A stretch of 30,314 nucleotides of DNA from the IMG/VR virus record IMGVR_UViG_2675903650_000004, positions 1-30,314 of that record; one strand, written 5' to 3'. The DNA is from a virus (Duplodnaviria; Heunggongvirae; Uroviricota; Caudoviricetes). Shown here piece by piece: positions 7,091 to 26,432 of the stretch; the stretch's first letter is position 1, and every line of letters starts with the position of its first letter. The position numbers and the translations under genes were made by a program. The notes under the pieces were generated by a model. The model searched no databases, was not told where the DNA came from, and was given only the letters and a program-made list of their open reading frames with translations.

Positions 7091-7105
7091 TTACCTTTCA
7101 GGTGA
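7091..7105. promoter_or_regulatory. operator-like palindrome TTACC-N5-GGTGA (site a), about 105 nt upstream of tailspike start
   Basis: ATTACCTTTCAGGTGA; 14/15 identical to site d at 26096; lies in the divergent region between tailspike and antirepressor module. Confidence 0.4.
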
Positions 7106-7138
7106 TTTGCAAAACGTGCTGGATAGCAAACAAATTAT

Positions 7139-7162
7139 TTGATACTGTATATTTGTACAGTT
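7139..7162 (+). promoter_or_regulatory. LexA (SOS) box overlapping a putative promoter
   Basis: TACTGTATATTTGTACAGTT = CTGT-N8-ACAG with AT-rich spacer (LexA consensus); TTGATA -35-like hexamer immediately upstream; 20 nt before the RBS (GGAG) of ORF 7182. Confidence 0.65.
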
Positions 7163-7181
7163 ATTGCATGGAGAAGATAAG

Positions 7182-7439
7182 ATGCAGCAGTATCACTATC
7201 CACTGGAAGACGGATTTACCGAAAGGATTCACACGCCGGGAGGCGTCAGATTACTGGTGGAGGGATCGCTCTTGATGAAATTACTCCGGGATCTCGATAA
7301 GGATGGATTTAATGTCGATGGCCCACTTGCCGAACTGACTGCACTGATTAACTACGTCACCAGCTCACAGATGTCTATGCAGGATCTGCAAACACATCTC
7401 GACTATTGTGCCGAACAATTACGAAAACAAACCAGATAA
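7182..7439 (+). CDS. small protein paralogous to the C-terminal domain of the downstream antirepressor (candidate SOS-induced antirepressor)
   Basis: ORF 7164..7439 (TTG) with ATG at 7182 and GGAG RBS; residues GGVRLLVEGSLLMKLLRDLDKDGFNVDGPLAELTALINYV...DLQTHLDYCAEQL align by eye with the C-terminus of ORF 7755..8465. Confidence 0.6.
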   Translation: MQQYHYPLEDGFTERIHTPGGVRLLVEGSLLMKLLRDLDKDGFNVDGPLAELTALINYVTSSQMSMQDLQTHLDYCAEQLRKQTR

Positions 7440-7442
7440 GGT

Positions 7443-7485
7443 TTGCAATTACCAAGTGGAGTGCTTATATTTACCTTTGAGGTAA
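7443..7485 (+). promoter_or_regulatory. promoter (TTGCAA-17-TATATT) with overlapping operator TTACCTTTGAGGTAA (site b)
   Basis: Sigma70-like hexamers with 17-nt spacer; 15-bp palindrome begins at last base of the -10. Confidence 0.5.
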
Positions 7486-7598
7486 ATTTACATCGCACTC
7501 CTCTTGTGCCATAGTAATCGGGTACTGGCAAAATCCAGTGCCGGGATTGGCGTCCCGAGTTACTAAGTGGCGCATACCACGCCAGACGTGGTTTTTTT
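7486..7598 (+). ncRNA. candidate structured leader or small RNA ending at an intrinsic terminator upstream of ant
   Basis: No ORF with RBS; several local hairpins (ACTGG/CCAGT, CGGGA/TCCCG); terminator ACCACG-CCAGA-CGTGGT followed by T7 at about 7576..7598. Confidence 0.3.
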
Positions 7599-7754
7599 AT
7601 GCGTTAAGCACAGCCATATCCGAATTATGGTGGGCTGGGCAGGGGTCCGAAAGGACGCCGGTACCACTTAGGCCGGTACGCCAACCTTGTCCAGTTCACC
7701 ACCAGTAATTGGCGTTGCGGTGGTGATTAAAATCACTAAGTGGAGATAACCACC

Positions 7755-8465
7755 ATGGCTAATGCTCAAACTGCCATCTTCAAATTTGAATCTGTTAACC
7801 CTATCCGTTCCATCATTATCGATGGCCAACCATGGTTTGTAGCCCAAGACGTTTGTAGTGCGCTGCGTATCCAAAACGTCACCCAATCACTTGAAAAACT
7901 GGATGATGATGAAAGGTCTATGTTCAACATAGGGCATGAACATCGTGCAATTTTTGACAGCCGAGTAAAAGAGATCAACATCATCTCCGAGTCAGGCCTC
8001 TACACACTGATCCTCCGCTGCCGCGATGCGGTGACACCAGGCACTATCCCCTACCGCTTTCGTAAATGGGTTACAGGTGAGGTTCTTCCTCAGATCCGCC
8101 GCACCGGAAGTTACATTAAAAACTCGCTCCCGCAGGAAGAACGCATAAAGATGGTTGCCGACCAGGTAGCCAACGCCACGGCGTCAGCAGTAATACAGGC
8201 AATGAAGATAGAGAACAAAACCTACAGTGCCCCACTGAAGCCCGGCTACCGCAGCCTGATTCACTCGCCGTCTGGTGTTCTCGGCCTGACGGAGAACTCA
8301 CTGCTGATGAATCTGCTGAACCAGTTACAGGAAGACGGGCATGACGTATCGGGCGCGGCGGCGGAACTGACCACCATGTTCTGCTACATCGTCGGTGTGA
8401 GTAAATGCCTGCGTGATATCCAGACCCACGCGGAATACATCAACGACAAGGCAGGATTCTTCTGA
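7755..8465 (+). CDS. phage antirepressor (Bro-N / Ant N-terminal domain plus C-terminal domain)
   Basis: ORF 7740..8465 (GTG); ATG 7755 with GGAG 9 nt upstream; Bro-N-type signature FKFESVNPIRSIIIDGQPWFVAQDVCSALRI. Confidence 0.85.
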   Translation: MANAQTAIFKFESVNPIRSIIIDGQPWFVAQDVCSALRIQNVTQSLEKLDDDERSMFNIGHEHRAIFDSRVKEINIISESGLYTLILRCRDAVTPGTIPYRFRKWVTGEVLPQIRRTGSYIKNSLPQEERIKMVADQVANATASAVIQAMKIENKTYSAPLKPGYRSLIHSPSGVLGLTENSLLMNLLNQLQEDGHDVSGAAAELTTMFCYIVGVSKCLRDIQTHAEYINDKAGFF

Positions 8466-8509
8466 CGGGCGGTGGCACATGGATGTGCTTTTAAATAATT
8501 CTGTACAGA

Positions 8510-8552
8510 TTGCAGACTGTGGGTGAATAGCGTACTATTACCTCAAGGGTAA
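8510..8552 (+). promoter_or_regulatory. promoter (TTGCAG-17-TACTAT) with overlapping operator TTACCTCAAGGGTAA (site c)
   Basis: Same architecture as site b: -35, 17-nt spacer, -10, then 15-bp TTACC-N5-GGTAA palindrome. Confidence 0.5.
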
Positions 8553-8612
8553 ACGGATTGGTTTCATTTTTATTAATCCGTGTAATGAACTTATGAGATA
8601 TGAGGTAATGTC

Positions 8613-8792
8613 ATGCGAAACGAAAAATTGCAGATGCGTAGAGCGCAAGCTGCCGCAAGACGTTCTTTCAATGGAAGCGTAGAGTACGTAAAAGTTACTA
8701 TGACAAAAGATCACGCAAGTCGCGTATCCCGCGCTTTCTTTGATTCTCGTAACAATAAGGAAAATTATGAGTTCGTCTGCGTCGCAGAATGA
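8613..8792 (+). CDS. hypothetical 59-aa basic protein (candidate antitoxin or regulator)
   Basis: Not in ORF track (below length cut-off); ATG 8613 with GAGG 7 nt upstream; translation MRNEKLQMRRAQAAARRSF...; 3' end overlaps start of ORF 8767 by 26 nt. Confidence 0.35.
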   Translation: MRNEKLQMRRAQAAARRSFNGSVEYVKVTMTKDHASRVSRAFFDSRNNKENYEFVCVAE

Positions 8793-9312
8793 TAAAAATC
8801 AAATTGTCAGATATAAGGGTCGAGTATTGCATACGCAAAATTTCTCGGCCCTTTGTGCATCTGATCTTGAGCTGAAGAAAGTATCTGATGCCTTTACCCA
8901 GTATTGGAAAACGGGATACCATCCATCTCTTGGTAAAGATGCTGCATTTGCTCGTCCGACAGAAATGCTTAAACTAAATGTCAGGCATACTCATGTCGAT
9001 AACCAAGACTATATTCCAGAAGATAGTGATAAAAAACACACTGGTAAAAAATCATCTTGGGATGCATGGAAAAATATAGCGTCTGTACAAGTAAAATGCA
9101 TACCAACAAGTGATTGCTTTTTAGTTTATTCGGTAAATCACAATCGTGATGCGCTGGTTATGTTTTTTGTTGACGCAGATGCTCACAACATAACTGAGCA
9201 AGAAGAGTTTAAAGAGGCAGCAATCACTATCAGTTATCAATTCTTTGAGAAAACAAAAACAGAACCAATGCCTTTAGAAGAAGATCTTTTTTCTGATAAA
9301 TGGAAGGAATAG
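8767..9312 (+). CDS. hypothetical protein with YafO-like toxin motif (candidate toxin or abortive-infection effector)
   Basis: ORF 8740..9312 (TTG); ATG 8767 with AAGGA RBS; central G[KR]DA...RP...H.H.. and LVY...D.D.H pattern resembles YafO-family toxins as recalled from memory; AT-rich; own promoter/operator upstream and terminator downstream. Confidence 0.7.
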   Translation: MSSSASQNDKNQIVRYKGRVLHTQNFSALCASDLELKKVSDAFTQYWKTGYHPSLGKDAAFARPTEMLKLNVRHTHVDNQDYIPEDSDKKHTGKKSSWDAWKNIASVQVKCIPTSDCFLVYSVNHNRDALVMFFVDADAHNITEQEEFKEAAITISYQFFEKTKTEPMPLEEDLFSDKWKE

Positions 9313-9332
9313 CCCGCGCCGCGGGCTTTTTT
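9311..9332 (+). terminator. intrinsic terminator
   Basis: GC stem GCCCGC / GCGGGC with 3-nt loop then TTTTTT, immediately after stop of ORF 8767..9312. Confidence 0.75.
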
Positions 9333-9404
9333 GTGGACGAAACAAAAGTCAGTGCTACACTCATTGACGCCACATCGAGGTGGCTTATAGATGGAAATTT
9401 CACA

Positions 9405-9566
9405 ATGAAAAAAGCATTTGCTGCACTGTTCGTTTTGTTGTCTCTGGTAGCTTCAACTCAGGCCTTTGCCGGTCGTTGTCAGCACGACAGCGATACTGCC
9501 GCTGACGGCTCCCGCTGCGGTGGGCGTTCTGCGGATTCCCGCCCGGGCGGCGGTGGCATTCGTTAA
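9405..9566 (+). CDS. signal-peptide mini-ORF (53 aa; small exported peptide or remnant of a truncated secreted-protein gene)
   Basis: Internal ATG of ORF 9300..9566; classic Sec signal MKKAFAALFVLLSLVASTQAFA then a GC-rich 31-codon tail with two Cys; weak RBS; possible promoter TTGACG at about 9364. Confidence 0.35.
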   Translation: MKKAFAALFVLLSLVASTQAFAGRCQHDSDTAADGSRCGGRSADSRPGGGGIR

Positions 9567-9589
9567 AAACAAGGCCGCGAAAGCGGCCT

Positions 9590-9601
9590 GTGACATGTCA
9601 C
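9590..9601. repeat. perfect 12-bp palindrome GTGACATGTCAC, copy 1 of 3
   Basis: Identical 12-mer also at 27084..27095 and 29349..29360; all three at 3' ends of transcription units next to hairpins. Confidence 0.8.
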
Positions 9602-9604
9602 GAC

Positions 9605-10018
9605 TTATAAAGATGACTGATATTTTACAACTCTGTTCATGGCATCTTTTTTCACCGAGCTGATATCAGTTCTTATTTTGGCTTCGTCATTACTGCTTAT
9701 CATGCTATTAATTTTTTGCACTGACATGCCGTTTCTTTCAGCCATTGCACATACAGCAGCATCGTATGAAGAACTCGCTGCGATGGATATCACCTTGTTA
9801 CACTCAAACACAGCACCTTCAGCAATATCAGATGCCGATGAGGCTGGCTTGGTATAAGTCTTGACGTAGTGATCAATACAACTATCCTTCGCCGTCTTGG
9901 CAAGAGAAAAATCCATTTTAACTTTGTCGCAATATGCCTTATCAACACCGTCATAAACATCATAGGATGTCGAGCAAGCGGATATCAAAAATACCGATAA
10001 CAGCAATAATTCCTTCAT
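9605..10018 (-). CDS. lipoprotein (moron at distal end of the ejection-protein operon)
   Basis: 137 aa; signal peptide with lipobox ISAC; AAGGAA RBS; AT-rich relative to upstream structural genes; Cys-rich periplasmic domain. Confidence 0.8.
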   Translation of the reverse strand: MKELLLLSVFLISACSTSYDVYDGVDKAYCDKVKMDFSLAKTAKDSCIDHYVKTYTKPASSASDIAEGAVFECNKVISIAASSSYDAAVCAMAERNGMSVQKINSMISSNDEAKIRTDISSVKKDAMNRVVKYQSSL

Positions 10019-10027
10019 TGTTGTTCC

Positions 10028-12502
10028 TTATTGCGGAGTGACATCCTGAGGTCGCCACCAGTATGTCTGGTTAAACTCTTTCTTTGAACGTTGCTCCATT
10101 TTACGCAAATAGCCTGGTGAAAAATACTCCTGCATCTGGTTAAAGATCATGTGATCGAGAGCCGCCTTCAAATACCAGAGATTCGCACCAGGCATCAAAC
10201 CTTTCCCAAGCTTAACCAAATCACCACCAGTCTGCTCATTCTTCCCTTCCACAGCATTTAACGGTATACCCTGAGCAATCTTCACTACGTCATCAACCAG
10301 ACCAGCTACCGGGCCAAGCATCGACGCTAGTGCGCCGCTCCCGTACCTGGTGTGGTCAGAGAAAAGAAAATCACCATACAACCCTGCCCCACCACCTTTT
10401 AAAAATGCATTTATCCAGAATTTAACCATGTTGTCACCGGTCATTTCTTTTGGATTTCTCCCATTAATAAGATCAGTAATCTGCATGGAAAGAGCACCAA
10501 GCATGGTTGTGCTTGCTAAAAACGTTGCTATATATGCCGCACGCCCACCAGCAGACGGCATCCCCATAGCTCTATGCCAGTGACGCATAACTACCGAGAT
10601 AGGGAACGATTTAAACAGGAAAACACTTCTCGTTAATTCACCTTTCCATGTTCCACGCTGAAGACCAGACCCTACGAACATCTGTTCACGTGCGCCCGGT
10701 GTAATAACAGCCATATCAACTTCTTCAGTTACGGCACCGAGCAGTTTACGCATTGCCTCAAATTTCACACGTTCAGGCTCACCAAGATGTTTAACTGCTG
10801 AATCAGGGATACGCATAATGCTTTCCGGTGTCAGCATCGTATTATTACCGTTCCCCCAGTCCTCCTGTTGCGCCAGCTTCCATACGCTCCAGTCTGTGTC
10901 AGTAATCCCTTTGCTTTTCAGGATACGAAAATCAGAGTCATCGAGGCTACGAAGGTCTGGTGTCCGTGACACTACTTCTCCCAGGCTTCCCATCATGGTT
11001 ACGCCATAAGCGCGCTTGTGCGCATCTGACCATGCTGTAAGTCCACTGGCACGCATTACCGCCGTTGCCGCCCAACGAGACACAGACGGCCCCATATTAT
11101 CCATCGCCCAGCGGTTAACGCTGCCAAGTAGAGATTCCATCGCCAGACCAGCGCGGCGCGCCCGCGCAAGCTCAGTACGGTTCGTTGGGTCCATAGCTTC
11201 AAGCTGGTTGCGGAATAACTGGTTCATTGGAAGGTTGGTAACCTTCGCAGACAGATATATGGTTCCAAGATCAGAGAACGATGACAGCAACGCGGATCCG
11301 AGCCTGCTGGCAACCAGCCAGTTTCTGATATTGTCAGACCAGCGCGCGATGTGAGGATTCGCAACAGGCTGTGTCTTTCCGGAAATAAAGTTGTACAGGT
11401 TCTCTGTTTTGTTCGCCAGCCGCTCGACGCTACCGGTTTTACTCGGGTTAGCTGTTGCCGTTTCTGCCTTCACCTGATCAAGAAGAGAGCGGAAAACATG
11501 ATCAGGGTTTGGGCCATATGTTTCCACCAGTGCAATATCTTTACTGATACCTTCCAGGTGACCGACCATGATTTCCCATAGAGAGCGATCGCCATAAAGT
11601 TGCTGATATTGCAGATAGGAATCTGCATCTTTGAAATGTATCTGTCGTGATGCATTACCACGGTTAGCACGTGCGCCGGAAATTCGCATTCCGGTATCAG
11701 TAAGCTTATTCAGCCCACCAGTAGCGATCGTGTTATAAGCCTCTCCAAGAAATGCAGACAACTCGGCATCGTTCATCAGTTGTCCATCGGCTCGGATATA
11801 ATATTTGCGATCCAGCTTACCTATAACATCGCTAACCCACTTATCCTTTGATACCGCCCCAACCTTTTCCATAGAATGATGTTGAGGGATTCCCCAGTTT
11901 TCGAGATAGCCAATGTCCCCACCAGCATCATTAAACCGGCGGCGCAGTAGATCTGTCACTTCTCTCCACGCCTTAGCACCTTTTCTTGCTTTAGCATTGC
12001 CAGTATTTTGCCCTCGCATTTCATATACCAGGTCACGCACGCCAGCTTCATCTTCAAACAGGCCAAAAAAGCGAGGATCAACTGCTTCAAATGCCTCTTG
12101 CAATTGACTCAATGCATAATCACGAGTGGCTTTTGTTCTGGACTCAACAGAGAGAAAATTCGATTTACCGTCTGCATTAAAAGCAATAGTACGGTTAAGA
12201 GCGCCGAGTTTCCCATCAGCCCCTTGATAGCTATTGATAAATTTATCCAATCTCTGACGTGCGGCTATAGTGAGGGCCACACGACGTTTCTTTAATGCCG
12301 CTTCTCGCTGTAATTCTTCAGATGCCAATTGTGCTGCACGATATAGCCGCTCTGATTCGGAAAGTTGTCTCCACGACATCGGGTCATCACGAGCAATGGA
12401 GCGCATATTTCGATAAATGCGGTCTTCAATGTTCTGTATTTCTCGCGCCGTTAACGTGCGCTGCGCCGCCTGCTGGACCGCTTGTATACATTCCTGTCTC
12501 AT
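10028..12502 (-). CDS. internal virion / DNA-ejection protein (large)
   Basis: 824 aa, tightly packed in late operon after other core proteins; position and size as in podovirus ejection proteins. Confidence 0.8.
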   Translation of the reverse strand: MRQECIQAVQQAAQRTLTAREIQNIEDRIYRNMRSIARDDPMSWRQLSESERLYRAAQLASEELQREAALKKRRVALTIAARQRLDKFINSYQGADGKLGALNRTIAFNADGKSNFLSVESRTKATRDYALSQLQEAFEAVDPRFFGLFEDEAGVRDLVYEMRGQNTGNAKARKGAKAWREVTDLLRRRFNDAGGDIGYLENWGIPQHHSMEKVGAVSKDKWVSDVIGKLDRKYYIRADGQLMNDAELSAFLGEAYNTIATGGLNKLTDTGMRISGARANRGNASRQIHFKDADSYLQYQQLYGDRSLWEIMVGHLEGISKDIALVETYGPNPDHVFRSLLDQVKAETATANPSKTGSVERLANKTENLYNFISGKTQPVANPHIARWSDNIRNWLVASRLGSALLSSFSDLGTIYLSAKVTNLPMNQLFRNQLEAMDPTNRTELARARRAGLAMESLLGSVNRWAMDNMGPSVSRWAATAVMRASGLTAWSDAHKRAYGVTMMGSLGEVVSRTPDLRSLDDSDFRILKSKGITDTDWSVWKLAQQEDWGNGNNTMLTPESIMRIPDSAVKHLGEPERVKFEAMRKLLGAVTEEVDMAVITPGAREQMFVGSGLQRGTWKGELTRSVFLFKSFPISVVMRHWHRAMGMPSAGGRAAYIATFLASTTMLGALSMQITDLINGRNPKEMTGDNMVKFWINAFLKGGGAGLYGDFLFSDHTRYGSGALASMLGPVAGLVDDVVKIAQGIPLNAVEGKNEQTGGDLVKLGKGLMPGANLWYLKAALDHMIFNQMQEYFSPGYLRKMEQRSKKEFNQTYWWRPQDVTPQ

Positions 12503-12507
12503 TTAAT

Positions 12508-14310
12508 TTAACCTCTCAAGAAACACGCCACAGCGACATCAAACAGGCTGGAATCCTGTATTGCCTGCTCACTTTCCCTGTTCGCTTCATCCAGTACTTC
12601 ACGCGCGCTGCGCGATTGTGGATTACCATCATCATCCAGCACGGTGATTATCATGTCAGGTGATTCAAGCAACGAGTCTTCAGCTATGCGCAGATCAATA
12701 TCTCCTGCCTGATCCGCCATCATTTTTTGTTCTGCCTGTTGCAATATTTTATCAGGCTCAAAAGGAGCTACTTCGTCTGGCGTCCTGACCTCTGCTGTTT
12801 TATAGAATGAAACAGCCTGAGCATTAAGTTCACTTTCTACCTGCAGTCGCCGTGCCAGTTCTGCTCGAGCTTCAAAAAACTGACCTCCATGCTCGTGCGG
12901 CGCCAACGCGTTACGGGAAAATTCCAGGCGTTCTTGTGCCTGCCGGATTCGTTGGTCAATATCGCGAATTCTGGCCTGTTTATCTGATCGAGCACGAGAC
13001 AAAGCTTTACCGCTACCAGTTGGCTCTTCTGCAAGAATTTGTGCGCGCTGTTCAGTGAGATTGTCGAGAATTCGTTGGCTATTAGCGATTTCAGACTGGT
13101 AAACCTGTCTATCGCCACGCGGCAAAAGCTGCGCAGCCTGTTCTTCAAGCAACCGATTTTCGATAGCGCGCGCCGTTACTCCATCATCTACAGATGACAG
13201 AGCCTCATTAACTGCCTGAGACAGCAGATTCTTGCGCCCAGGAATTTCACTGAAAGATGCAGACTCAACAATGCTGGCAACGTCTACAGGTCTCCCCTGG
13301 CTAACAGCAGACATAGCTTTTCGCAGAGCCTGAATGTGAGAATTGCGCGAAAGCACGTTGATCGGCACGCCGGGAGCAATATCAATTTCAGCATGATGAG
13401 CGGCATTCGCCGCCAGTGCAGCATCGATATCAACTGGTGAAAAGTTTGGTGCGTTTGTAGACTCGCCGCGAGAGTTAATAAATCTGCCGACTCCACCAAA
13501 AGCCACCCCAAGAACAGCATCAATAGCAATTGCCTGTCGATCCAACACATCATACTGGTTAGCCATTTCGCTATAGCCACCATCACGAAGCGTTTTTGCA
13601 GTAAGCCCGCGCTGTGCCATACCGAACGCAATATTTGTACCTGCGGCATAGGCAATATCTGGCGTTGCACGTACTGCTGTTGCCGCGGCGCGTCGCACTG
13701 AACTTTCACCCGTCCGCGCAAGCTGAGCCGCCACACCTTCCGCTAGCGCACCACCAGCACGTAACCCGAGACTCATAGGGATCAGTGTTCCGGCACCAGC
13801 AGTAATACCCTGCACTAATCCCGCTTCCTGCGCCGTCCTGAAATCAACCCCCTGAGCTGTCAGTCGTTCAAACTCAGAAAAACCCTGTAGCGAAGTTACC
13901 GCCGCAGCACCTCCGACCGGACCACCGAGCGTTGTACCGACAACAGCCTGCCCGCCCATATCGAACAACCCATAAAGAACCTGCCCTGCGGTTCCGGTTG
14001 TCGCGGCATCAGGCGTCAGCCGCTTAACCTGCTGCTCTGCTAGTTTTCTCTGCTCGGCAATGTATGAAACTGAAGTGTCATTGAGCGAGGTGTTTTCGTT
14101 AACAAACTGAGCAATCGGGGATACGATTTTATCCATCCCTGCCCATAGCAACTGATCTGGCTTTGCCACCAGCCCGGAGTACAAACCAGACAATGCCGCT
14201 CCTACAGCATTGTCGAAAAAACCAACATCGCTGTTAAAGCCAGCTGGATTTGATGCTGCTTCGTCAAGCTGCTGATTCTGGTTTACTGGATTAAGGCCAA
14301 AGTAACTCAT
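12508..14310 (-). CDS. internal virion / DNA-ejection protein
   Basis: 600 aa, Gly/Ala-rich segments; overlaps upstream gene by 4 nt. Confidence 0.8.
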   Translation of the reverse strand: MSYFGLNPVNQNQQLDEAASNPAGFNSDVGFFDNAVGAALSGLYSGLVAKPDQLLWAGMDKIVSPIAQFVNENTSLNDTSVSYIAEQRKLAEQQVKRLTPDAATTGTAGQVLYGLFDMGGQAVVGTTLGGPVGGAAAVTSLQGFSEFERLTAQGVDFRTAQEAGLVQGITAGAGTLIPMSLGLRAGGALAEGVAAQLARTGESSVRRAAATAVRATPDIAYAAGTNIAFGMAQRGLTAKTLRDGGYSEMANQYDVLDRQAIAIDAVLGVAFGGVGRFINSRGESTNAPNFSPVDIDAALAANAAHHAEIDIAPGVPINVLSRNSHIQALRKAMSAVSQGRPVDVASIVESASFSEIPGRKNLLSQAVNEALSSVDDGVTARAIENRLLEEQAAQLLPRGDRQVYQSEIANSQRILDNLTEQRAQILAEEPTGSGKALSRARSDKQARIRDIDQRIRQAQERLEFSRNALAPHEHGGQFFEARAELARRLQVESELNAQAVSFYKTAEVRTPDEVAPFEPDKILQQAEQKMMADQAGDIDLRIAEDSLLESPDMIITVLDDDGNPQSRSAREVLDEANRESEQAIQDSSLFDVAVACFLRG

Positions 14311-17365: not shown

Positions 17366-17829
17366 TATTTTCTCTCCATGTGAAATCTGTGGAAATTAAG
17401 ACCAAGAGCACCATAAGGCGCGGCTTCTTCAAGCCTGAATCCAAGCCAGTGCAGCCATGCTTTGGCAACATGGTTTCGCTCGTCGACGTAGTTTTCCAGG
17501 CGCGGATAAACTGCCAGCATCTGCTGCAATACAGGGCGGCAGTGGCGCAGAAATGTCTTCTGATATTTTTCAATACGGCTGGTTCCGACCAGCCAGGGCG
17601 TACCATTGCCACCAATCATTGACGCCGGTGATACACCAAACATGGTTACCAGTTCTCTGTTCGCAAACCCTGACCAGGCCATAGTCGCAGTGCGCAGACC
17701 AACACGTAGCGCATCTTCGGTAGTCATCAGCGATACCGCATACAGTTCGTCAATATCAGCCTGACGAACATCCGGCAAAATCATCTGAAGATGCTCTTCG
17801 GTAGCGGGAATAATTCGAACATCGATCAT
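17365..17829 (-). CDS. hypothetical virion-associated protein
   Basis: 154 aa, translationally coupled between nozzle-like and core protein genes. Confidence 0.6.
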   Translation of the reverse strand: MIDVRIIPATEEHLQMILPDVRQADIDELYAVSLMTTEDALRVGLRTATMAWSGFANRELVTMFGVSPASMIGGNGTPWLVGTSRIEKYQKTFLRHCRPVLQQMLAVYPRLENYVDERNHVAKAWLHWLGFRLEEAAPYGALGLNFHRFHMERK

Positions 17830-20300
17830 CAGAACCCCCCAACAGTAAGGCGAGGAATAACGGCAAGAACAGACAGCGGCAACGGGTCAAGCTGACGGAT
17901 TCTTACACGTCCGTTTTTTCCCCAGTTACTGTCCAGTTTCACATCTACTTTTCCGGTAGCGTCATCAACAGGATCATCGTAGAACTCGAATTCACGCTGT
18001 GGATATTCGTACCATTTACCGCCGGGCGTAGTCGCCCAGATGCCGCGACTGGCATTCACCACCAGGGTAACGGACGGGATCACCTGTTTTTTGTCCAGCA
18101 GTGTTTCCTGTCCGTTAATGTTGATATCCAGTGTTTCGAATTCAGAAGTTATTGGCAGGCCGATGTGCACTACAGCCCCCGGTGATTCCAGCGTGACGGC
18201 ACCTCCGGAAACCACTTTCTGTGGTTCCACGTTCGCATCAGAGAGAATGTTTACGGTCTGGCCTTCAAGATGAGACAGGCCTCCAAATGTCCGGCGCGCC
18301 ATCTGCCAGTTCGTGGTGGCCGCATTCCTGAGGGATGGCGGGACGTTCCTGTTGGCACGAACCACTACAGCGGTATTGCTGGTTACAGAAATAATGTCGC
18401 AACGTAATTCTTTTGACACTTCATCGCCAGTATCAGGATCAGTTCCGGTATAAGGGAACTGTAGTTGCGCGTCGACATCACTACTGGTGAAGTACGCACC
18501 ACCAGAAACACTGATTGTATATTCCGTACGGTAATCCCATTCACCAGAACCACCAGTGATGGTCATTGTTCTGTCAGACGTATTTCTTCCATCATAGCTA
18601 AGGCCAGAATCAACAAAGAAAGCATCTTCATCGCTGGTAAATAAACGGCTGGACAGTCGCTCGATGTATCTCACTGTTTGCCCGTTAACGGTTCGGTTAA
18701 CGACGAAATACACCGCATCTTCATTGCCTTCGCTGATACTGCATGTGCTTTCATATTTTCCGGTACTGGATTGTGGTGCCCATGCAAAAACCTGCTGATC
18801 ACGCAAATAGGTCATCACCAGTAATTTACCGTCATCACGAATGCAGAAGGCACTGGAGTAAGGGACAATCGAGAAGCACCAGTCAACAATGCTGTGCTTC
18901 TGAAAAAGATGATTGGCAAGGATAGTAAGGTCGTTCCCCTGATAGCCGTCAACATCGAATGAGTAGGCCAGATCACGGACAACACTGCCTTTCTCCTGGA
19001 CGAACAGAGCAATATTCGCCACGGCAATTGGTGGGACATTGCTCGAGCCATTTGATCCCTGAGAGCTGAATGCAAATGATGATGGGGTTAACACTTTGTT
19101 CTGGTCGCCGGTGATGACGTACTCACCTCCGGAAGTCAGTGCCACCAGCGAACCGACATCAATCAGGTGACGGATCTCATTAACCTGACGCCCGGCATAG
19201 GTGTAGATAATTCTGTCGTCATCCTGCGTAGGATTGCTTTTACCAAAATCCTTATAATCACCGGTACGGCTGGCCCAGATAGTCTGAGGGAACGCAGTCG
19301 ATGCGGCAAAGTAAAGACGTTGTTGATAATAAACAACAGTGCCAGGATAACCGTTAACACTGTTCCAGGCATATTTAGCCCATTTATAGCTTGCATTATT
19401 CGCACCAACTACCTGCGAAGGGATATAGGAAATCACCTCGGCAGTTGCAGTAGTTCCATTTGCAGCAGTGATACGGGCAATGCCAAAACCACTGTGCAGA
19501 TATTCCCACTCAATGCCGGTATCATCATCACCGGATCCGCCCCAGCCATCCCATGATGTGCCTTCTGTATGCGAAGGGCGCAAAGTGCATGTTTTGCCTG
19601 CTGTAACGGCGCGATAGTAGTTACTGTCTGCACGGCGAATATCGCCAATCGACGTACTCTTACTGGTTTCCCATACCGGTACTGAATCCACTGCTGGCTG
19701 TTCCAGATAGAACAATTTGCCTACCTGCTCCACGCCAAAAATAGAGGCGCTTGCCGTTAACGTAATTGTCCCGGTGCTGGCGCTGGCATAAACCGTCACT
19801 GACTCGTCAATATTGATATCTTCAAATGGCCCGTTCTTCGTTACCACATCAACCAGTTGCCAGTTGTCATGCGCATAGCGGCGCAACTCTTTCGGCGGGT
19901 ATGCCGGATGAACCAGCGTAAGCACGTCTGCGCTTTGCGTGAATTTAATTCTGAACAGATCGGCTTCAGTATATGGCGTGGCAATTTCATAAATAACATT
20001 GCTGCTGTTCAGCACCAACGCACCATCTTTGATAACGCGCATGTACTGGTGTCCGAACTCCAGAGCATAAGTCTGAACCGTCGAGAACTGGAACGGGATC
20101 AGGCGGCATTTCCGATTTGGGTATTTGGCGGCACCGACAAAACGCGTACCAGGTCGATTCTCAACGCCGCCATACTGCCGCACGATAAAGTTATCGCACT
20201 TGCGCAATGCCACCTGGTACTTCGCCATGTCGATACGTCCGTACAACGACGGTCCAATCTCACCACCAGCAAAGCTGGGCTGGATCCAACTGATAGCCAT
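17829..20300 (-). CDS. tail tubular protein B-like (nozzle, T7 gp12-like)
   Basis: 823 aa; N-terminal pattern MAISWIQPSFAGGEIGPSLYGRID...NRPGTRF and size consistent with podovirus nozzle proteins. Confidence 0.75.
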   Translation of the reverse strand: MAISWIQPSFAGGEIGPSLYGRIDMAKYQVALRKCDNFIVRQYGGVENRPGTRFVGAAKYPNRKCRLIPFQFSTVQTYALEFGHQYMRVIKDGALVLNSSNVIYEIATPYTEADLFRIKFTQSADVLTLVHPAYPPKELRRYAHDNWQLVDVVTKNGPFEDINIDESVTVYASASTGTITLTASASIFGVEQVGKLFYLEQPAVDSVPVWETSKSTSIGDIRRADSNYYRAVTAGKTCTLRPSHTEGTSWDGWGGSGDDDTGIEWEYLHSGFGIARITAANGTTATAEVISYIPSQVVGANNASYKWAKYAWNSVNGYPGTVVYYQQRLYFAASTAFPQTIWASRTGDYKDFGKSNPTQDDDRIIYTYAGRQVNEIRHLIDVGSLVALTSGGEYVITGDQNKVLTPSSFAFSSQGSNGSSNVPPIAVANIALFVQEKGSVVRDLAYSFDVDGYQGNDLTILANHLFQKHSIVDWCFSIVPYSSAFCIRDDGKLLVMTYLRDQQVFAWAPQSSTGKYESTCSISEGNEDAVYFVVNRTVNGQTVRYIERLSSRLFTSDEDAFFVDSGLSYDGRNTSDRTMTITGGSGEWDYRTEYTISVSGGAYFTSSDVDAQLQFPYTGTDPDTGDEVSKELRCDIISVTSNTAVVVRANRNVPPSLRNAATTNWQMARRTFGGLSHLEGQTVNILSDANVEPQKVVSGGAVTLESPGAVVHIGLPITSEFETLDININGQETLLDKKQVIPSVTLVVNASRGIWATTPGGKWYEYPQREFEFYDDPVDDATGKVDVKLDSNWGKNGRVRIRQLDPLPLSVLAVIPRLTVGGF

Positions 20301-20905
20301 CAGGACAACCTCGCAATGGTAAACTCATCAACCGGTGGCTGAGGTTCCTGTGATTCATTCTGGCTATGCGAGCCAGCACTAAGAATCTCGCGATTGTACA
20401 TATTGAGGGCAAACGTACCGAGGTCTGCATTCCCAGTCAGCGCCATGTTAATAGCTGCCGCAAGACGCCAGGCCAACGCCTCCATAAAAATGGCATCAAA
20501 CATGTTCACATCTGAAACGCGAGAGACATACTTGAGCCATGCCTGCGGCTGGTCTGTGTAGATCAATTTTCCTGTTCCGTTGGTGTCTGCACCAACTTCG
20601 TACTGAACGCGCATTGCTGCTGTTGGATTGCGTACACCAGGAAGCATAATTTCAGTAATGCGCAGACAATCGGACGGGTACTGGTACGCATATTCCCAGT
20701 CAGGCGGTGGATTGCTCGTATCTGCAAGCGCCACGCGTTTGGTAGCAAAGTTCCAGTCAAAATCAGAAAGCACAGCATCACGGCAGGCCTCAAAGTGCAG
20801 CGAACATTCCCCCGCTTCCTTGCTGGCTTCCGTCAGGCTGTTAATGCTGCGGCTGTTGCCAATATTGGACAGCGCACGATTGCAGATCTCTACTACAGAG
20901 GCCAT
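20300..20905 (-). CDS. tail tubular protein A-like / adaptor (T7 gp11-like)
   Basis: 201 aa immediately upstream of nozzle gene, stop/start overlaps; N-terminus MASVVEICNRALSNIGNSRSINSL resembles gp11-type adaptors by pattern. Confidence 0.6.
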   Translation of the reverse strand: MASVVEICNRALSNIGNSRSINSLTEASKEAGECSLHFEACRDAVLSDFDWNFATKRVALADTSNPPPDWEYAYQYPSDCLRITEIMLPGVRNPTAAMRVQYEVGADTNGTGKLIYTDQPQAWLKYVSRVSDVNMFDAIFMEALAWRLAAAINMALTGNADLGTFALNMYNREILSAGSHSQNESQEPQPPVDEFTIARLS

Positions 20906-21228
20906 TACTCACCCCCATTGCCGTACAGAGTTTCAGCCGCTGATTTTTCTACATCACCGGAAACAGGAGCGATTGCCATATCAGTGATCTGCAGATCGGC
21001 GCTGCGATTAACACCATCGTCAGTTTCTCTGGCAGACAGGCCTCGAATAACAGCCTTTGCAGTTATCATCACTTCTGTTCCGACGCCCTGAGGTTGCGCC
21101 TTCAGCTTATTCAATGTGTCGTTATTCAGCGTGATGCACAGCCCCCACGGGTATTCATCGCGAGTTCTGGTTTCTCCGCTCTCATCCTGGTAGCTGTCAG
21201 TGCCGGTTTTGAGGTTTACGAGTTCCAT
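20905..21228 (-). CDS. hypothetical head/tail structural protein
   Basis: ORF 20905..21234; ATG at 21228 (MELVNLK); in late operon. Confidence 0.55.
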   Translation of the reverse strand: MELVNLKTGTDSYQDESGETRTRDEYPWGLCITLNNDTLNKLKAQPQGVGTEVMITAKAVIRGLSARETDDGVNRSADLQITDMAIAPVSGDVEKSAAETLYGNGGE

Positions 21229-21278
21229 ATACACTCCTGCAATAAAGGGGCCGAAGCCCCTTGTCTGATTCGCGAGGC

Positions 21279-21614
21279 TTACACGCCCAGTTCTTTACGC
21301 TTATCTGCGATCTTCTCGCGGAGCGTTTCGGCTTTGGCGTTATGGTGTGGCTTCTCGTTAAAGAGCAATTCGTACTCTTCACGGAGCTTATCCAGTTCAC
21401 CATCATCTGACACATCGTTGATGATTTTGGTGCTGGTTGCTGCCATTGACACCTTTCCTGCAACTTTTGCTTTTGCCTGTCTGGCTGCATCGTTAACAGG
21501 TTCCAGTGCGCTACCAGGCTCACCTTCGTATTCGATTTCTGCCCCCTCCGGCCACAGAGTGTTATGGATATGAGAGAGGCGCAGAACGCGGTATCTTGGT
21601 TTCTCACCTGACAT
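21279..21614 (-). CDS. hypothetical structural protein
   Basis: ORF 21279..21623; ATG 21614 with AAGGTGA RBS. Confidence 0.55.
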   Translation of the reverse strand: MSGEKPRYRVLRLSHIHNTLWPEGAEIEYEGEPGSALEPVNDAARQAKAKVAGKVSMAATSTKIINDVSDDGELDKLREEYELLFNEKPHHNAKAETLREKIADKRKELGV

Positions 21615-21624
21615 CAATATCACC

Positions 21625-22062
21625 TTAACCAGTTACTTTTGAGCGGATCGGATACGGCGTATTGGCATCAACATCAAGACTGATACCCGCAGTGAATTCG
21701 CCAGCCGTTAGTGGGCCAGTTGCGACGGAGTAGTTAACACGCAGATATCGCTGAACACCGGCAGGCACCTTTGCAGAAACAACTCGTTTACCTGCTGTCA
21801 GGGCGGTCTTTGCCAGTGCGCCACTATCATAAATAGTGGTCCATGAGCTGTTATTCTCACTCGTCTGCAACTGGATGTTTACAGTTGCATCACCGCTTGC
21901 CGCGGCGGCTGTGTTAACCAGCGCCCAAAACTCAAGCGGGTAACCTACGCCGATATCACGACGTTTTCCGTCAATTGGACCGAGATCGATTACGTCAGTA
22001 GAAGCCGCGGTATTCGTAACCGCCTGAGCTTCGGAGAACATCAACAGTTTGTCGGTGATCAT
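21625..22062 (-). CDS. putative capsid decoration / cement protein
   Basis: 145 aa, Ala/Thr/Gly-rich beta-type composition, directly downstream of major capsid gene. Confidence 0.55.
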   Translation of the reverse strand: MITDKLLMFSEAQAVTNTAASTDVIDLGPIDGKRRDIGVGYPLEFWALVNTAAAASGDATVNIQLQTSENNSSWTTIYDSGALAKTALTAGKRVVSAKVPAGVQRYLRVNYSVATGPLTAGEFTAGISLDVDANTPYPIRSKVTG

Positions 22063-22113
22063 CTTCTTTCTCCATTAGTGGGTCTGTTACGACCCACAGG
22101 TTAATAACAGGCG

Positions 22114-23100
22114 TTACACCACGCGGGCTTCTGTTTCCAGAAGCGCATCAGTTTCACGGATTGGTACACCACGGAATGAAGTCCACCACTCGCCTTCAGT
22201 CTCTTTTACGCTGATAGCCAGAGATGTTTTCTCCAGAGATTGCAGATCAAGAGCCTGGCCTACAGTGCGGTTCATGTAGAACACCGGGCGACCCATGCCA
22301 CGGTTTGGAATGCGATGCAGTGCTTTAACCATCAACTTCGCAATATTTGCGGCAGAGGAAGGTTCTGAAAGATTGCTGACATCGATGTTTGCAATGCGAA
22401 CAACATAACGCCAGTCACGCAGAGCAAGTCCGTTGTCCCATTTGTAATGGGTACGGTAGCCTTCGTACTTGCCGCCATTAACATCTTCCAGTGTCACCTG
22501 GCCTTTATCTTCCATCTGGATGCCAGCCTTCTGCCCTTTCGGGAAGATGCCATGCACGGTGTTTTCGCCCCACACCACTAACCAGATTGAGGTGTTATCT
22601 GTACCCGTGCCACCAGCATCAATGATGTTCTGAGCATTACCCGCAGACAGGCTGGAATAGCGGGAGGACAGTCCCATAAACTGCTGAGGGTTAACGCTGG
22701 AATCACCATAAAACAACGTCTGCGCCATCTGCTGATTCATCGCTTCAATAAATGCGCGGTCTTCAGACAGGCGGAATTCGGCGGTATTACCGTTCAGATC
22801 AGCCAGTGACTTATCGACTTCAGCATAGGTTTCCAGCATTCCAACGGAATCGGTGACCTGCACTGTGGTTGATTTGCTTGGCTGTACGCCATAGTTCAGC
22901 AAACGCCAGGTGGCTGAAGGTAAACCAGAACGAATGGTGGTTCGGTGTCCGGTAGGAAGGTTCCCTTCGACAAAAGGCATATCCTGAAGGATCGGGTTAG
23001 TTTGACCGAGAAGCTCGATAATCTTATCGACTTTCCCGTTTGGATCGACGCGCTTACCCCAGTCAGCCAGCGTTAGCGCAGTTAAGCCTTTAACAGCCAT
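22114..23100 (-). CDS. major capsid protein
   Basis: ORF 22114..23106; ATG 23100 with GAGAGG RBS 8 nt upstream; about 330 aa, downstream of scaffold gene. Confidence 0.85.
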   Translation of the reverse strand: MAVKGLTALTLADWGKRVDPNGKVDKIIELLGQTNPILQDMPFVEGNLPTGHRTTIRSGLPSATWRLLNYGVQPSKSTTVQVTDSVGMLETYAEVDKSLADLNGNTAEFRLSEDRAFIEAMNQQMAQTLFYGDSSVNPQQFMGLSSRYSSLSAGNAQNIIDAGGTGTDNTSIWLVVWGENTVHGIFPKGQKAGIQMEDKGQVTLEDVNGGKYEGYRTHYKWDNGLALRDWRYVVRIANIDVSNLSEPSSAANIAKLMVKALHRIPNRGMGRPVFYMNRTVGQALDLQSLEKTSLAISVKETEGEWWTSFRGVPIRETDALLETEARVV

Positions 23101-23114
23101 TGTCATTTCCTCTC

Positions 23115-23810
23115 TTATTTGCCATAGAGCACTTCGGCCGCACTACGCTGGCCTTCATTACCACCGGTGACCATGCCATCTTCAGACATCGCCTTTCCGA
23201 TTTTCACGAACGTTTTGACCAGATCAGGGTGATTACCCAGCCCGGTGGTGTTCAGATATTCTTTGAGCTCAGGTGTCCCGAACTGGTCAAGCGCACGCTG
23301 TGCGGCGCTAAGGTTAGAAATCAACTTGTCGCCACCGATTTCTTTGTCAGCTTTTACATCCGCAGCCCACTGCTCGGTTGTTTTCTGCCAGGCTTCTGCC
23401 TGGCGCTGCTGAACACCTGCCAGAATCTTCGGATAAGCATCAACCAGCTTTTGCGCTTGCTCGTTGGTCAGGTTAAGTTCTCGCGCCACCGGCTCGAATT
23501 CCTTCAACGCTTCTGTATCCAGCTCTACGCCTTCGGCAGCCTGAAACTCGTACTTCTCAGGCGCACCCTCTGGTTTATTGCCGTCCTTTTTTTCATCCTG
23601 CTTATCGTTTTCAGGCTTTTTGTCATCAGCAGGTTTATCGCCATCAGCAACAGGTTGTGGCTTATCACCTTCCTGTTGTGATGGATCACCAACTGGAGCA
23701 GGGTTATCACCTGCAGGCGCTGACGGTTCTGACGCAGCCGGAGCTGCTCCACCATCGACTGGTTGCTCATTGCAAAGACGGCGATACAGCAAACGCTCAA
23801 ATAAATTCAT
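23115..23810 (-). CDS. scaffolding protein
   Basis: ORF 23115..23816; acidic, Pro/Ala/Asp/Lys-rich low-complexity N-half and helical C-half; between portal and capsid genes. Confidence 0.75.
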   Translation of the reverse strand: MNLFERLLYRRLCNEQPVDGGAAPAASEPSAPAGDNPAPVGDPSQQEGDKPQPVADGDKPADDKKPENDKQDEKKDGNKPEGAPEKYEFQAAEGVELDTEALKEFEPVARELNLTNEQAQKLVDAYPKILAGVQQRQAEAWQKTTEQWAADVKADKEIGGDKLISNLSAAQRALDQFGTPELKEYLNTTGLGNHPDLVKTFVKIGKAMSEDGMVTGGNEGQRSAAEVLYGK

Positions 23811-23812
23811 GA

Positions 23813-24109
23813 TCACTCCTGTTCACTGGCCTCTTTGGCCATCTTCAAATACTGTTCAGGGCAATGCGCCATAACGCGCTGAAACAGTTCCAGCGCCAGA
23901 TTGCGTTGCCCCTCATTAAATGCCATTGCCATAGCGTCCATCGGTGAGATAGCGGAAAACACACGGCCTTTCTCCAGCACCGACCAGACAACGCGACGCC
24001 CCTGTTCACTGCTCATGACAAAGCGAATGTCATCAATTTCACGCTGCGCCATGTCACGTTGCTTACGGGCGTTTTCTTCTTTCAGTTGATCGTCTTCGTA
24101 ATCTGTCAT
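23813..24109 (-). CDS. hypothetical protein between portal and scaffold genes
   Basis: 98 aa, acidic; 4-nt overlaps on both sides. Confidence 0.6.
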   Translation of the reverse strand: MTDYEDDQLKEENARKQRDMAQREIDDIRFVMSSEQGRRVVWSVLEKGRVFSAISPMDAMAMAFNEGQRNLALELFQRVMAHCPEQYLKMAKEASEQE

Positions 24110-25470
24110 TGTGATTGCCCACCCTGACCACTAACTGCATTCGCCATAGCTGACAAAACACTCGGATCCGAAGTTTTAGCTTCGCTTAGCGTCTTGGCAC
24201 CCTGTGCCGCCGCCATCCCCATCGCCATCATTTGTTGCTGCTGTTGCTGCTGTGCCCGTTGCTGGCGAGCCTGCTCAACCTGTTCCTGCGGAACAATGAC
24301 GGTTGGAGACACTCCGGACATATCAGCGAATGCATCGATCGCCTGATCAACGTTGAGTTTGTCGAGAGCTTCTGGTTTCGCTTGCGCAAGTTGACCAATG
24401 AAGTTAACCGTGGACGCCAGACTGGACAGGCCGATAGACTTCTGAGCCTGAGCCATGACGGAAATGTATTCGACCTTCAGGGGCATGCCTTCCATCGCGT
24501 CAGGCGGTGGCGGCAACATGTTTTTACGCACCATCATCGAGAAAGCGCGGTCAATGAGAGGATTAAGACATTCGTCGTTCAGACGCTCCAGAACCGGCCC
24601 CAACATCAGAAGTTTTTCTTCTTTCATTTCGATCACCGCTTCAACAGGCATCGAGCGGGTATTGATGTTCTGCAACATCATGAACAGATCGACAAAGTAG
24701 GCGCTGTTAATGATTTGCCGAGTGTCCTGAATGTCTGCTACCAGATCTGCTGTACTGGGGTTAACCAGATAAGCAGGCCTGAAGCCATCCTGACCAGTAA
24801 TCTGATCGATATACGTGATGTCGCCAGGAAGAAGGGAGGCGCGCTGATTCTTGAGGGAAGTCGGAGCAACCATCGGCGGATTGGTGGCTTTATCAATCAA
24901 CTGCGACTTGCGCTTCTGGAGAAGCTGCAATGCCTTAACAGGTCCAAGCGCCAGCATACCCGGGCATGATGATCCATAAACATCTTCGCCGTTAACTTCC
25001 CAGCGCGGAGCCATAATTGGAAACTCATCGAATCCTGACTCACGCAACAACTTGTCGTTATCGCCACCAACCTCGTAATAAACCGATTTGAATGGCTTGT
25101 TCTTGCTATCCAGCTTCGATGTATCGCGGTCAATGTTCGGGTAAACCGAATGCATCACTTCAATCCACTTCTCGTAGGTACCGCTTTCCCACATGCTTTT
25201 TACGGATTCGCTGACGTTATTTAGCCCGAACTCCTGAACAAGCTGACGAACAGTCATAGAGAACTTGCGAAAACAGGTGTCCACACTGCCACGAGGTGAG
25301 TTAGCCAGGTAGTAACTGCCTATCGGGAATGGCATTGTGCGAATGATGTCCTCGTCATCCTCCAGTACCGCCATTGCACCGGTGCTGTATGTGCCGAGGC
25401 TTCCGTATAACTGCGGCAGCGACTGATAGAGATTCGACTTATTGAACATATCGTTCATGCGGTTCTGCAC
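24106..25470 (-). CDS. portal protein, C-terminal 454-aa segment (frame differs from N-terminal segment)
   Basis: Gln-rich C-terminus ...QQRAQQQQQQQMMAMGMAAAQG resembles T7 gp8-type portal tails; begins with GTG immediately after an in-frame stop. Confidence 0.8.
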   Translation of the reverse strand: MQNRMNDMFNKSNLYQSLPQLYGSLGTYSTGAMAVLEDDEDIIRTMPFPIGSYYLANSPRGSVDTCFRKFSMTVRQLVQEFGLNNVSESVKSMWESGTYEKWIEVMHSVYPNIDRDTSKLDSKNKPFKSVYYEVGGDNDKLLRESGFDEFPIMAPRWEVNGEDVYGSSCPGMLALGPVKALQLLQKRKSQLIDKATNPPMVAPTSLKNQRASLLPGDITYIDQITGQDGFRPAYLVNPSTADLVADIQDTRQIINSAYFVDLFMMLQNINTRSMPVEAVIEMKEEKLLMLGPVLERLNDECLNPLIDRAFSMMVRKNMLPPPPDAMEGMPLKVEYISVMAQAQKSIGLSSLASTVNFIGQLAQAKPEALDKLNVDQAIDAFADMSGVSPTVIVPQEQVEQARQQRAQQQQQQQMMAMGMAAAQGAKTLSEAKTSDPSVLSAMANAVSGQGGQSQ

Positions 25471-25784
25471 CCCTCAAGCCACAACTTAACAGGGCCATAA
25501 TCCATCATTTCAGGATCTGGCGTAGCCAGGCGAAACCACGGACGCGCGGGGCTTGTGATGCCTGACATCATGCCGCTGGCGAGAGTGCGCGCCGCCATAG
25601 TCCCGGTCGAATCAATAATGCGTGTATTGCGTCGATCGTTACGGTTGACCTCAGAAGTCAGAAAGCGGGAACCACGCGGGTTGATGTAATCACTCAACTC
25701 GCGCCAGTGCGGCTCGAACGACTGACGCTCGCTTTCAAGTTGTGCGAACTGTTTGTTCAATCGCTCTTTAGTTGTTTCCGCCAT
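25455..25784 (-). CDS. portal protein, N-terminal 109-aa segment
   Basis: N-terminus ...KERLNKQFAQLESERQSFEPHW...ARTLASGMMSGITSPARPWFRL matches podovirus portal N-terminal pattern; ends in the -1 frame relative to the 24106..25470 ORF at a GGGG run. Confidence 0.75.
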   Translation of the reverse strand: MAETTKERLNKQFAQLESERQSFEPHWRELSDYINPRGSRFLTSEVNRNDRRNTRIIDSTGTMAARTLASGMMSGITSPARPWFRLATPDPEMMDYGPVKLWLEGCRTA

Positions 25785-25798
25785 TTCAATGACTCCGG

Positions 25799-26005
25799 TT
25801 ACTGACCAAGCAGCGTTTTACCGCTGGTATTAGCGGTTGATGTGTCGCCCTGAGAACCGGTAAGCAGCGTAGAACTACGACCAGCAGCAGCGCGACGGCG
25901 ACGTGTTTCTTCGTCGCGGGCATCAACAACGGCGGCATCCTGCTCCTGTGGTGCTGCCTGAACTTCTGGTGTTGCAGGCACTGATGGTGAGCTACCCATG
26001 CACAT
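25799..26005 (-). CDS. hypothetical 68-aa protein upstream of portal
   Basis: ATG 26005 with GGAG RBS; RBS region CGGAGTCATTGA is identical to that of the portal gene. Confidence 0.5.
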   Translation of the reverse strand: MCMGSSPSVPATPEVQAAPQEQDAAVVDARDEETRRRRAAAGRSSTLLTGSQGDTSTANTSGKTLLGQ

Positions 26006-26432
26006 ATCAATGACTCCGTACGCAATTAAATTATTACCAATTTAACCACATATGATTTATTTATCGTAGATAGTTGACATTTAACGCACGAATTATTACC
26101 TTTCAGGTAAGCAAAGAGTTCATTCCGGTTATTAACCTGACTGGCTTGTCGTTAAATTGAACAGGTGGAGTGAGCTTTTATTTTGAGCAGTACGGCGTAT
26201 GGCACATGCGCCGATAGCGGTCTGGATACGTTTAAGGGGCACCCTCCCTTGCTCGAGCAAACGAACCAGGTAGCCGGAATGTGCAAGTCGAGCGGTTTTA
26301 TTCCGCGCACGGGGATTCACCATCCCGGCGATTCGGTGTGACGCCTCGGAAGAGACGAGGGTACAACGATGAGAGCATTTATGGAGCCGCGACAAAGTGT
26401 GGCGCCTTAACAGGCTAAGTGCTCTCAGCGTT

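Follow-up and report, generated by a model that had tools for sequence, protein, structure and literature searches.

TTACC-N5-GGTAA palindromes in a phiV10-type Uetakevirus prophage as probable operators of the lysogeny repressor Rep

The stretch of DNA analysed here (the window; 30,314 nucleotides, positions 1 to 30,314 of IMG/VR virus record IMGVR_UViG_2675903650_000004) holds a Uetakevirus prophage of the epsilon15/phiV10/SPN1S/SPC32H type, adjoining yfgH/yfgI, in which a palindrome of the form TTACC-N5-GGTAA recurs at several sites, labelled a to d, e1 and e2 in Table 1. The prophage runs in the opposite orientation to phiV10. Its closest relatives are Escherichia coli prophages 97-98.5% identical to it, and related DNA, counted where at least 80% of a terS-terL query was covered, was found in 266 of 5426 complete E. 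coli genomes.

Table 1. Genes, putative operators and other features of the window, in order of position (aa, amino acids; ORF, open reading frame).
Feature	Position	Strand	Details
Host DNA	1 to ~1500		
Lysis genes	1600-3406	-	
Acetyltransferase-like gene	3804-4856	+	
Tailspike gene	4884-6986	-	ATG at 6986
Accessory island	7000-10000		
Operator a, TTACCTTTCAGGTGA	7091-7105		1 mismatch; divergent region between tailspike gene (-) and ant (+, ATG at 7182)
LexA box, CTGTATATTTGTACAG	7145-7160	+	overlaps TATATT, a -10-like hexamer upstream of ant
ant, 85-aa antirepressor	7182-7439	+	SPC32H Ant homolog; phmmer against PDB 5D50 chain E, E=1e-44 over 83 aa
Promoter-like TTGCAA-17-TATATT	7443-7471	+	9/12 match; last base is first T of operator b
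Operator b, TTACCTTTGAGGTAA	7471-7485		exact; start of isrK-like/C4-like/Bro-N transcription unit
isrK-like small RNA	7522-7598	+	RF01394, 63.5 bits, above gathering score; ends in terminator 7576-7600
C4-type antisense RNA	7623-7706	+	RF01695, 66 bits, above gathering score
Bro-N domain protein	7755-8465	+	Pfam PF02498, E=4e-19; C-terminal 74 aa 43% identical to Ant (BLASTP E=2e-15)
Operator c, TTACCTCAAGGGTAA	8538-8552		exact; directly after TTGCAG (8510-8515)-17-TACTAT (8533-8538)
59-aa ORF	8613-8792	+	function unassigned, phrog_6685; downstream of c
YafO-toxin-family ORF	8740-9312	+	Pfam PF13957, E=1e-5; overlaps 59-aa ORF
Virion genes	10028-26025	-	
Operator d with promoter-like element	26074-26110	+	TTGACA (26074-26079)-N17-TACCTT; operator 26096-26110, exact
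tRNA-Arg(UCU)	26433-26509	+	ARAGORN, Rfam
Phage_gp49_66 family ORF	26708-27079	+	Pfam PF13876, E=6e-34
terL and terS	27170-29238	-	
terS control region	29238-29278	-	extended -10 TGgTACTAT, 29278-29270
Operator e2, TAACCACCGTGGTAA	29238-29252		1 mismatch; covers GGTGG ribosome-binding site and ATG of terS
Operator e1, TTACCGTTGTGGTAA	29256-29270		exact; terS control region
gp49-like regulator gene	29357-29704	-	

Exact copies of TTACC-N5-GGTAA occur four times in the 30.3-kb window (b, c, d and e1), compared with 0.01 expected from 100 shuffles of the sequence, and copies with at most one mismatch eight times, compared with 0.51 expected; neither count was reached by any of the shuffles. Sites a and e2 carry single mismatches, and the other single-mismatch matches, at 3259 and 18056, lie within coding sequence, are not shared by relatives and agree with chance (0.5 expected). 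A preliminary description of this DNA had listed a, b, c and d, and their coordinates and sequences were correct, as was the identity of a to d at 14 of 15 positions. All four are real, but that list was incomplete, as the pair before terS had been overlooked; what was taken there for an inverse arrangement, GGTAA-N3-TTACC, is the junction of the two adjacent ordinary sites e1 and e2, 18 bp apart centre to centre. A logo pooled from 131 distinct sites gave the extended consensus A-TTACC-t-n-(A/T)-n-a-GGTAA-T with AT-rich flanks. Unrelated DNA, 119 kb in all from lambda, E. coli K-12 (a 50-kb stretch) and a Novosphingobium locus, had no exact site, compared with 163 in 551 kb of Uetakevirus-type DNA.

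The distribution of the sites in related phages places them around a repressor gene as well as before many other transcription units. There are 14 sites with at most one mismatch in phiV10 (0.65 expected), two of them (OR) between the repressor gene p40 and a cro-like gene and two (OL) just downstream of p40, beside its terminator; the remainder are placed before int, the lysis genes, terS, gp3 and the antirepressor genes, and before two early-right restart points that follow terminators. The same pattern was seen in TL-2011b, epsilon15, SPN1S and Tyrion, and in ten prophages of Pseudocitrobacter, Citrobacter, Erwinia, Klebsiella, Scandinavium, Superficieibacter, Pseudescherichia, Buttiauxella and Samsonia, the relatives from other genera having been found by scanning genome contigs with a terS query. 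Listed site by site, these 15 relatives (five phages and ten prophages) have 4-18 sites each, counted with at most one mismatch, in the same places, and every full genome has two or three between rep and the cro-like gene and two or three just downstream of rep. Similar counts were obtained for six E. coli prophages fetched through a gp49-like protein identical to that of the window. Site positions are conserved over more than 10 genera while the flanking sequence diverges; neither a lack of conservation nor an equal density of the motif in unrelated DNA, which the preliminary description had named as grounds for giving up its proposal, was found. The window has no counterpart of the lysis-gene operator found in phiV10 and epsilon15; the acetyltransferase module adjoining that place is different.

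The spacing of neighbouring sites also recurs across genera. Measured centre to centre in the related loci (L001-L015), the commonest distances were 62 bp (n=21) and 17-18 bp (n=20), with 48, 30 and 76 bp also seen; the 62-bp spacing occurs at OL and before a DUF1064/RuvC gene, and spacings of 17-20 bp occur before terS and within OR. Such fixed distances suggest phased cooperative binding or looping by an oligomer.

Sites of this kind have been annotated before. The RefSeq record of epsilon15 (NC_004775.2) contains seven features labelled 'protein_bind: repressor / lysogeny', and all seven read ATTACC-N5-GGTAAT. Three are homologous to window sites: 12-27, before terS (e1); 2931-2947, before gp3 (d); and 19895-19911, between ant and the tailspike gene (a). 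These window sites lie at places homologous to annotated repressor sites, and they have the same half-sites, TTACC and GGTAA, with a 5-bp gap and usually a flanking A and T. Site a is further conserved in phiV10, TL-2011b, SPN1S and Tyrion, b has homologs at phiV10 20497, TL-2011b 34385 and Tyrion 21393, and c has one at TL-2011b 33333. The paper on vB_EcoP_ZX5 gives no operator definition.

The repressor encoded beside the OR and OL sites belongs to the Rep family. The p40 protein of phiV10 matches Rep of SPC32H (PDB 5D50 chain A) over its full length (E=4e-42), and Rep combines an N-terminal helix-turn-helix (HTH) domain, in which N36 and R40 of the presumed recognition helix are among the invariant residues, with a C-terminal domain for oligomerisation and Ant binding. 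Homologs are almost confined to this phage group (37 phage records); the E. coli proteins are at least 98.5% identical among themselves and 42% identical to the Salmonella protein. Operators lie on both sides of rep in phiV10 and TL-2011b. All six of the E. coli prophages sharing the gp49-like protein of the window encode a 194-aa Rep homolog, at a distance of about 6 kb upstream of that protein's gene. By synteny with these near-identical prophages and with phiV10, the rep gene of the window prophage is predicted to have the same place relative to the gene preceding terS, about 6 kb upstream, in DNA to the right of the window. A further indication came from the Pseudomonas siphophage PseuP_224, which is otherwise unrelated. 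The N-terminal domain of its cI protein is 39% identical to that of Rep, whereas its longer C-terminal part cannot be aligned with that of Rep, and directly upstream of this cI gene are ATTACC-cgta-GGTAAT, ATACC-cgca-GGGAAT and TTACC-tgtt-GGTAA. Because these sites precede a cI with a homologous HTH, they tie the HTH family to the TTACC half-site beyond Uetakevirus.

Taken together, the palindromes are very probably operators of Rep, the main lysogeny repressor, which is encoded outside the window and is homologous to epsilon15 gp38 and to Rep of SPC32H, physical binding being inferred from the enrichment, conservation and positions of the sites and from the homologies described above. The view that the sites are regulatory is thereby supported. 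A single regulator encoded outside the window, as had been proposed, remains the best explanation, but it would not be a simple dimer, since Rep is reported to bind palindromic sites as a tetramer that the tetrameric Ant splits into dimers (PMC9638917, a secondary source). Nor does the regulator appear to be a dedicated coordinator of accessory and late genes: in relatives the operators are also found on either side of rep (OR, OL) and ahead of int, the lysis genes, terS and two early-right units, as would be the case for the main immunity repressor.

How the sites lie relative to promoter-like elements suggests how repression would operate. At b, c and terS the last base of the -10 hexamer is position 1 of the operator, and the same arrangement is found at the phiV10 early-left promoter and at the promoter of the DUF1064/RuvC gene. 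That b and c adjoin the -10 hexamers of plus-strand promoters had been noted previously and was borne out; an additional ATTACC half-site overlaps the -35 of the promoter at b. Rep bound to an operator that starts at the end of the -10 would exclude RNA polymerase. Relatives have kept the arrangement before terS, with TGnTA(C/G)TAT and then two operators at a distance of 18-20 bp, and here e1 and e2, lying downstream of the extended -10, would cover +1 in addition to the ribosome-binding site and ATG. The start of terS in the phiV10 RefSeq record (41-715 in L001) and that of the longest ORF in the window (28642-29316, minus strand) fall inside the upstream terminator, and a start right after e2 (29238/29235 in the window), which is used in the TL-2011b and epsilon15 records and has a conserved ribosome-binding site and ATG, is more likely.

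Site d had been assigned, like a, to a divergent region upstream of a minus-strand late unit. Both do lie in divergent intergenic regions, but the conserved promoter overlapped by d runs along the plus strand, toward the tRNA-Arg and gp49/66-family genes and away from the minus-strand late unit. The region upstream of gp3 was aligned for 14 distinct phages and prophages. In every aligned region TTGACA, or a sequence one base removed from it, stands exactly 16 nt from TTACC, with a variable spacer, and the conserved element reads TTGACA-17-TACC(T/C)T, with its -10 inside the operator. On the other side of d, the roughly 80-bp non-coding block between the operator and the gp3 start codon (26006-26095, the minus-strand gp3 leader) is near invariant from Escherichia to Buttiauxella while its flanks diverge, and looks like an important control element.

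Several observations weigh against assigning the sites to Rep. At a, no conserved -35/-10 overlapping the operator was found on either strand; the LexA-controlled ant promoter and the likely tailspike start are each about 60-70 bp downstream of the site, which may act by looping or by blocking an upstream factor. Operator d, similarly, is separated by about 80 bp from the probable start of the gp3 transcript downstream. The 'repressor' features of epsilon15 may be bioinformatic predictions, and rep itself is not inside the window. No relative with an altered half-site turned up among the Uetakevirus-type genomes and loci (15 in number, drawn from more than 10 genera), and Reps that are just 42% identical share the same TTACC/GGTAA half-site; for the covariation of repressor and operator, PseuP_224 served as a partial substitute. 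Finally, a Cro-like protein could use the same sites.

This last point leads to the idea that the main binder is another phage regulator, either the Cro-like 76-aa protein encoded beside rep or the Cys-rich regulator of gp49/p55 type (29357-29704). Phage Cro proteins commonly share the operators of the repressor, as in lambda and P22, the gp49-like protein belongs to phrog_536 ('transcriptional regulator') and is encoded where a late regulator would be, and many of the sites precede late or delayed units. However, the sites bracket rep in the manner of OR and OL, the epsilon15 record assigns them to the repressor, and in PseuP_224 the half-site precedes a cI with a homologous HTH, with no Uetakevirus-type cro-like or gp49-like gene annotated in the 31.7 kb examined. 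We consider it unlikely that either protein is the main binder, and use of the sites by Cro would add to Rep rather than replace it.

The geometry of the palindromes, with a stem of 5-6 bp and a loop of 3-5 nt, could also be read at the level of RNA, as boxB-like 15-nt antiterminator stem-loops or as processing or stability signals at transcript 5' ends. Several sites do lie at predicted transcript 5' ends and several follow terminators, and the predicted folds have energies of -3.6 to -5.9 kcal/mol with z-scores of -2.3 to -3.1. These hairpins are nevertheless weak, and the pattern of variation is not that of a structure: 9 compensated double changes were counted, where about 6 are expected by chance, against 56 distinct one-sided single mismatches. 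Since the half-sites are invariant, the spacers vary freely and the mismatches are uncompensated, a protein site is indicated rather than a hairpin. The sites moreover take either orientation with respect to local transcription and are present in promoter spacers that are not transcribed, such as OR, and the half-sites recur with a different spacer before the homologous-HTH repressor gene of PseuP_224. Neither an excess of compensatory changes nor the single orientation expected of a boxB or nut-type hairpin was thus observed, and an RNA function for the palindromes is very improbable. Weaker still is the case for chance or for a non-functional dispersed repeat; it suits the two unconserved intragenic matches at 3259 and 18056, but given counts that no shuffle reached, the contrast in density with unrelated DNA and the conservation of positions, it hardly needs to be entertained for the family as a whole.

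If Rep is the binder, several separate transcription units would be kept silent in a lysogen by Rep standing on A-TTACC-N5-GGTAA-T at or beside their promoters. In the window these would be terS/terL (e1 and e2), the plus-strand tRNA-Arg/gp49_66 unit (d), the isrK-like/C4-like/Bro-N unit (b), the small-ORF/YafO-like unit (c) and the divergent ant-tailspike region (a). The last of these would contain the means of release. An Ant homologous to chain E of 5D50 is encoded behind a LexA box, and a CTGTAT-N-ACAG box is found in the same place in phiV10, TL-2011b, epsilon15, SPN1S, SPC32H and Tyrion. After DNA damage LexA would leave this box and Ant would be made; Ant would then disassemble Rep, and all of the operators would be freed together. 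By sequence, by position and by this pairing of Ant with a LexA box, the window sites are assigned to the Rep-operator family of epsilon15 and SPC32H. Other matches to CTGT-N8-ACAG in the window were not taken for LexA boxes: that at 26625-26640 on the plus strand (CTGTAAACCCGTACAG; CTGTACTGGTTTACAG in phiV10) lies between two terminator-like hairpins downstream of the tRNA gene, and its GC-rich middle makes it probably a small hairpin, and it and the match at 22084 were treated as chance or non-LexA.

The unit behind operator b seems to extend this circuit. Its Bro-N protein, in view of its Ant-like C-terminal domain, is probably a second antirepressor under Rep control, so that once Ant had inactivated some Rep, its production would provide positive feedback and reinforce induction. 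The prophage thus appears to carry two antirepressors that share a Rep-binding domain, one under LexA and the other under Rep and small RNAs. Operator b and the Bro-N gene are separated by a 270-nt leader that contains the isrK-type RNA, of a type of small RNA that binds Hfq, and the C4-type RNA, and leader and gene together resemble the c4-ant module of P1/P7 immI and the isrK-anrP locus of Gifsy-1. Behind operator c, the overlapping reading frames at 8613-9312 possibly form a toxin-antitoxin-like moron.

A second conserved motif, CATAT(A/G)TGGTT, whose core CCATATATGG is palindromic, is found at distances of 7-41 bp from Rep operators. It occurs at 26044-26057, 7051-7064 and 3461-3474 in the window and at 3308, 20921, 24739, 33135, 35116 and 31976 in phiV10 (L001), in forms that include CATATNTGGTT and CATATGTGGTT, and in all genomes checked it precedes gp3, the tailspike gene, the lysis genes and two early-right units, often with GGTAAT and a -10-like hexamer 4 nt after it. 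Read as a sigma-70 -35 element, a DnaA box or an IHF site, CATATNTGGTT was not consistent across units in any of these roles.

The gp49-like gene stands directly upstream of the terminator and terS, the place expected of a late regulator. Its product of 112 aa is rich in Cys (CGKC...CPC) and has no Pfam match, and an identical protein was found in 4226 blocks of a public assembly collection.

More speculatively, a single repressor might gate nearly every unit of these phages, without any late-gene activator made early, with the second motif marking a further regulator or an unusual class of promoter and the Bro-N-Ant fusion behind the isrK and C4 RNAs forming a self-reinforcing switch buffered by RNA; we regard this combination as possible but somewhat doubtful. 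The units so gated may be early-left, early-right, two internal early-right restarts, int, lysis, terS, the antisense tRNA unit, the second antirepressor and the toxin-like moron.

For the window itself, the practical meaning is a regulatory map for a very common type of E. coli prophage, of use for annotation and for engineering phiV10-type reporter phages. The terS/terL genes, the tRNA-Arg unit, the second antirepressor with its two small RNAs and the YafO-like toxin module are probably kept off in the lysogen and turned on together by SOS induction. The feature is already recorded for this phage genus, and as both the motif and the repressor family are known from epsilon15 and SPC32H, it leaves the present view of phage repression as it was.

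The Rep/Ant switch of SPC32H was reportedly described by Kim and Ryu in 2013 and by Kim et al. in 2016, and the 2013 abstract is said to mention that Rep resists cleavage. The window shares with this switch (PDB 5D50, 5D4Z) and with the epsilon15 sites the 15-17 bp palindrome ATTACC-N5-GGTAAT at homologous positions, and with SPC32H a homologous repressor, as judged through phiV10 p40, and a LexA-controlled Ant. It differs in being a phage of the E. coli phiV10 type, whose Rep is about 42% identical to that of Salmonella, and in its units b (isrK/C4/Bro-N-Ant fusion) and c (YafO-like module), additional Rep-operator units that are lacking in epsilon15 and SPN1S.

Dispersed operators for one immunity repressor are familiar from C1 of P1, although those are asymmetric 17-mers. 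The window prophage resembles P1 in having one inferred repressor and many scattered operators (about 14-18 per 39-kb genome), and P1/P7 immI in having an antirepressor gene behind a C4-type antisense RNA; in contrast to P1, its sites are symmetric and its repressor has an XRE-type HTH, C1 being unrelated to Rep. The stoperators of mycobacteriophage L5 and the inverted repeats of Streptomyces phage phiC31 are likewise numerous and spread over early as well as late regions, often placed just behind terminators or where operons begin. Stoperators, bound by gp71 of L5, are asymmetric, depend on orientation and stop elongation inside transcribed regions, whereas the present sites are symmetric and mostly overlap the -10/+1 of promoter-like elements, as in classical occlusion, and an assignment to the L5 type was rejected. 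CI of lambda acts at PR, PL and PRM only, and RecA-stimulated self-cleavage inactivates it. As in lambda, operators here are clustered on both sides of the repressor gene, with fixed spacings (62 bp; 17-18 bp) that suggest cooperativity or looping; unlike in lambda, they also stand at late and accessory units, and inactivation would be by an antirepressor.

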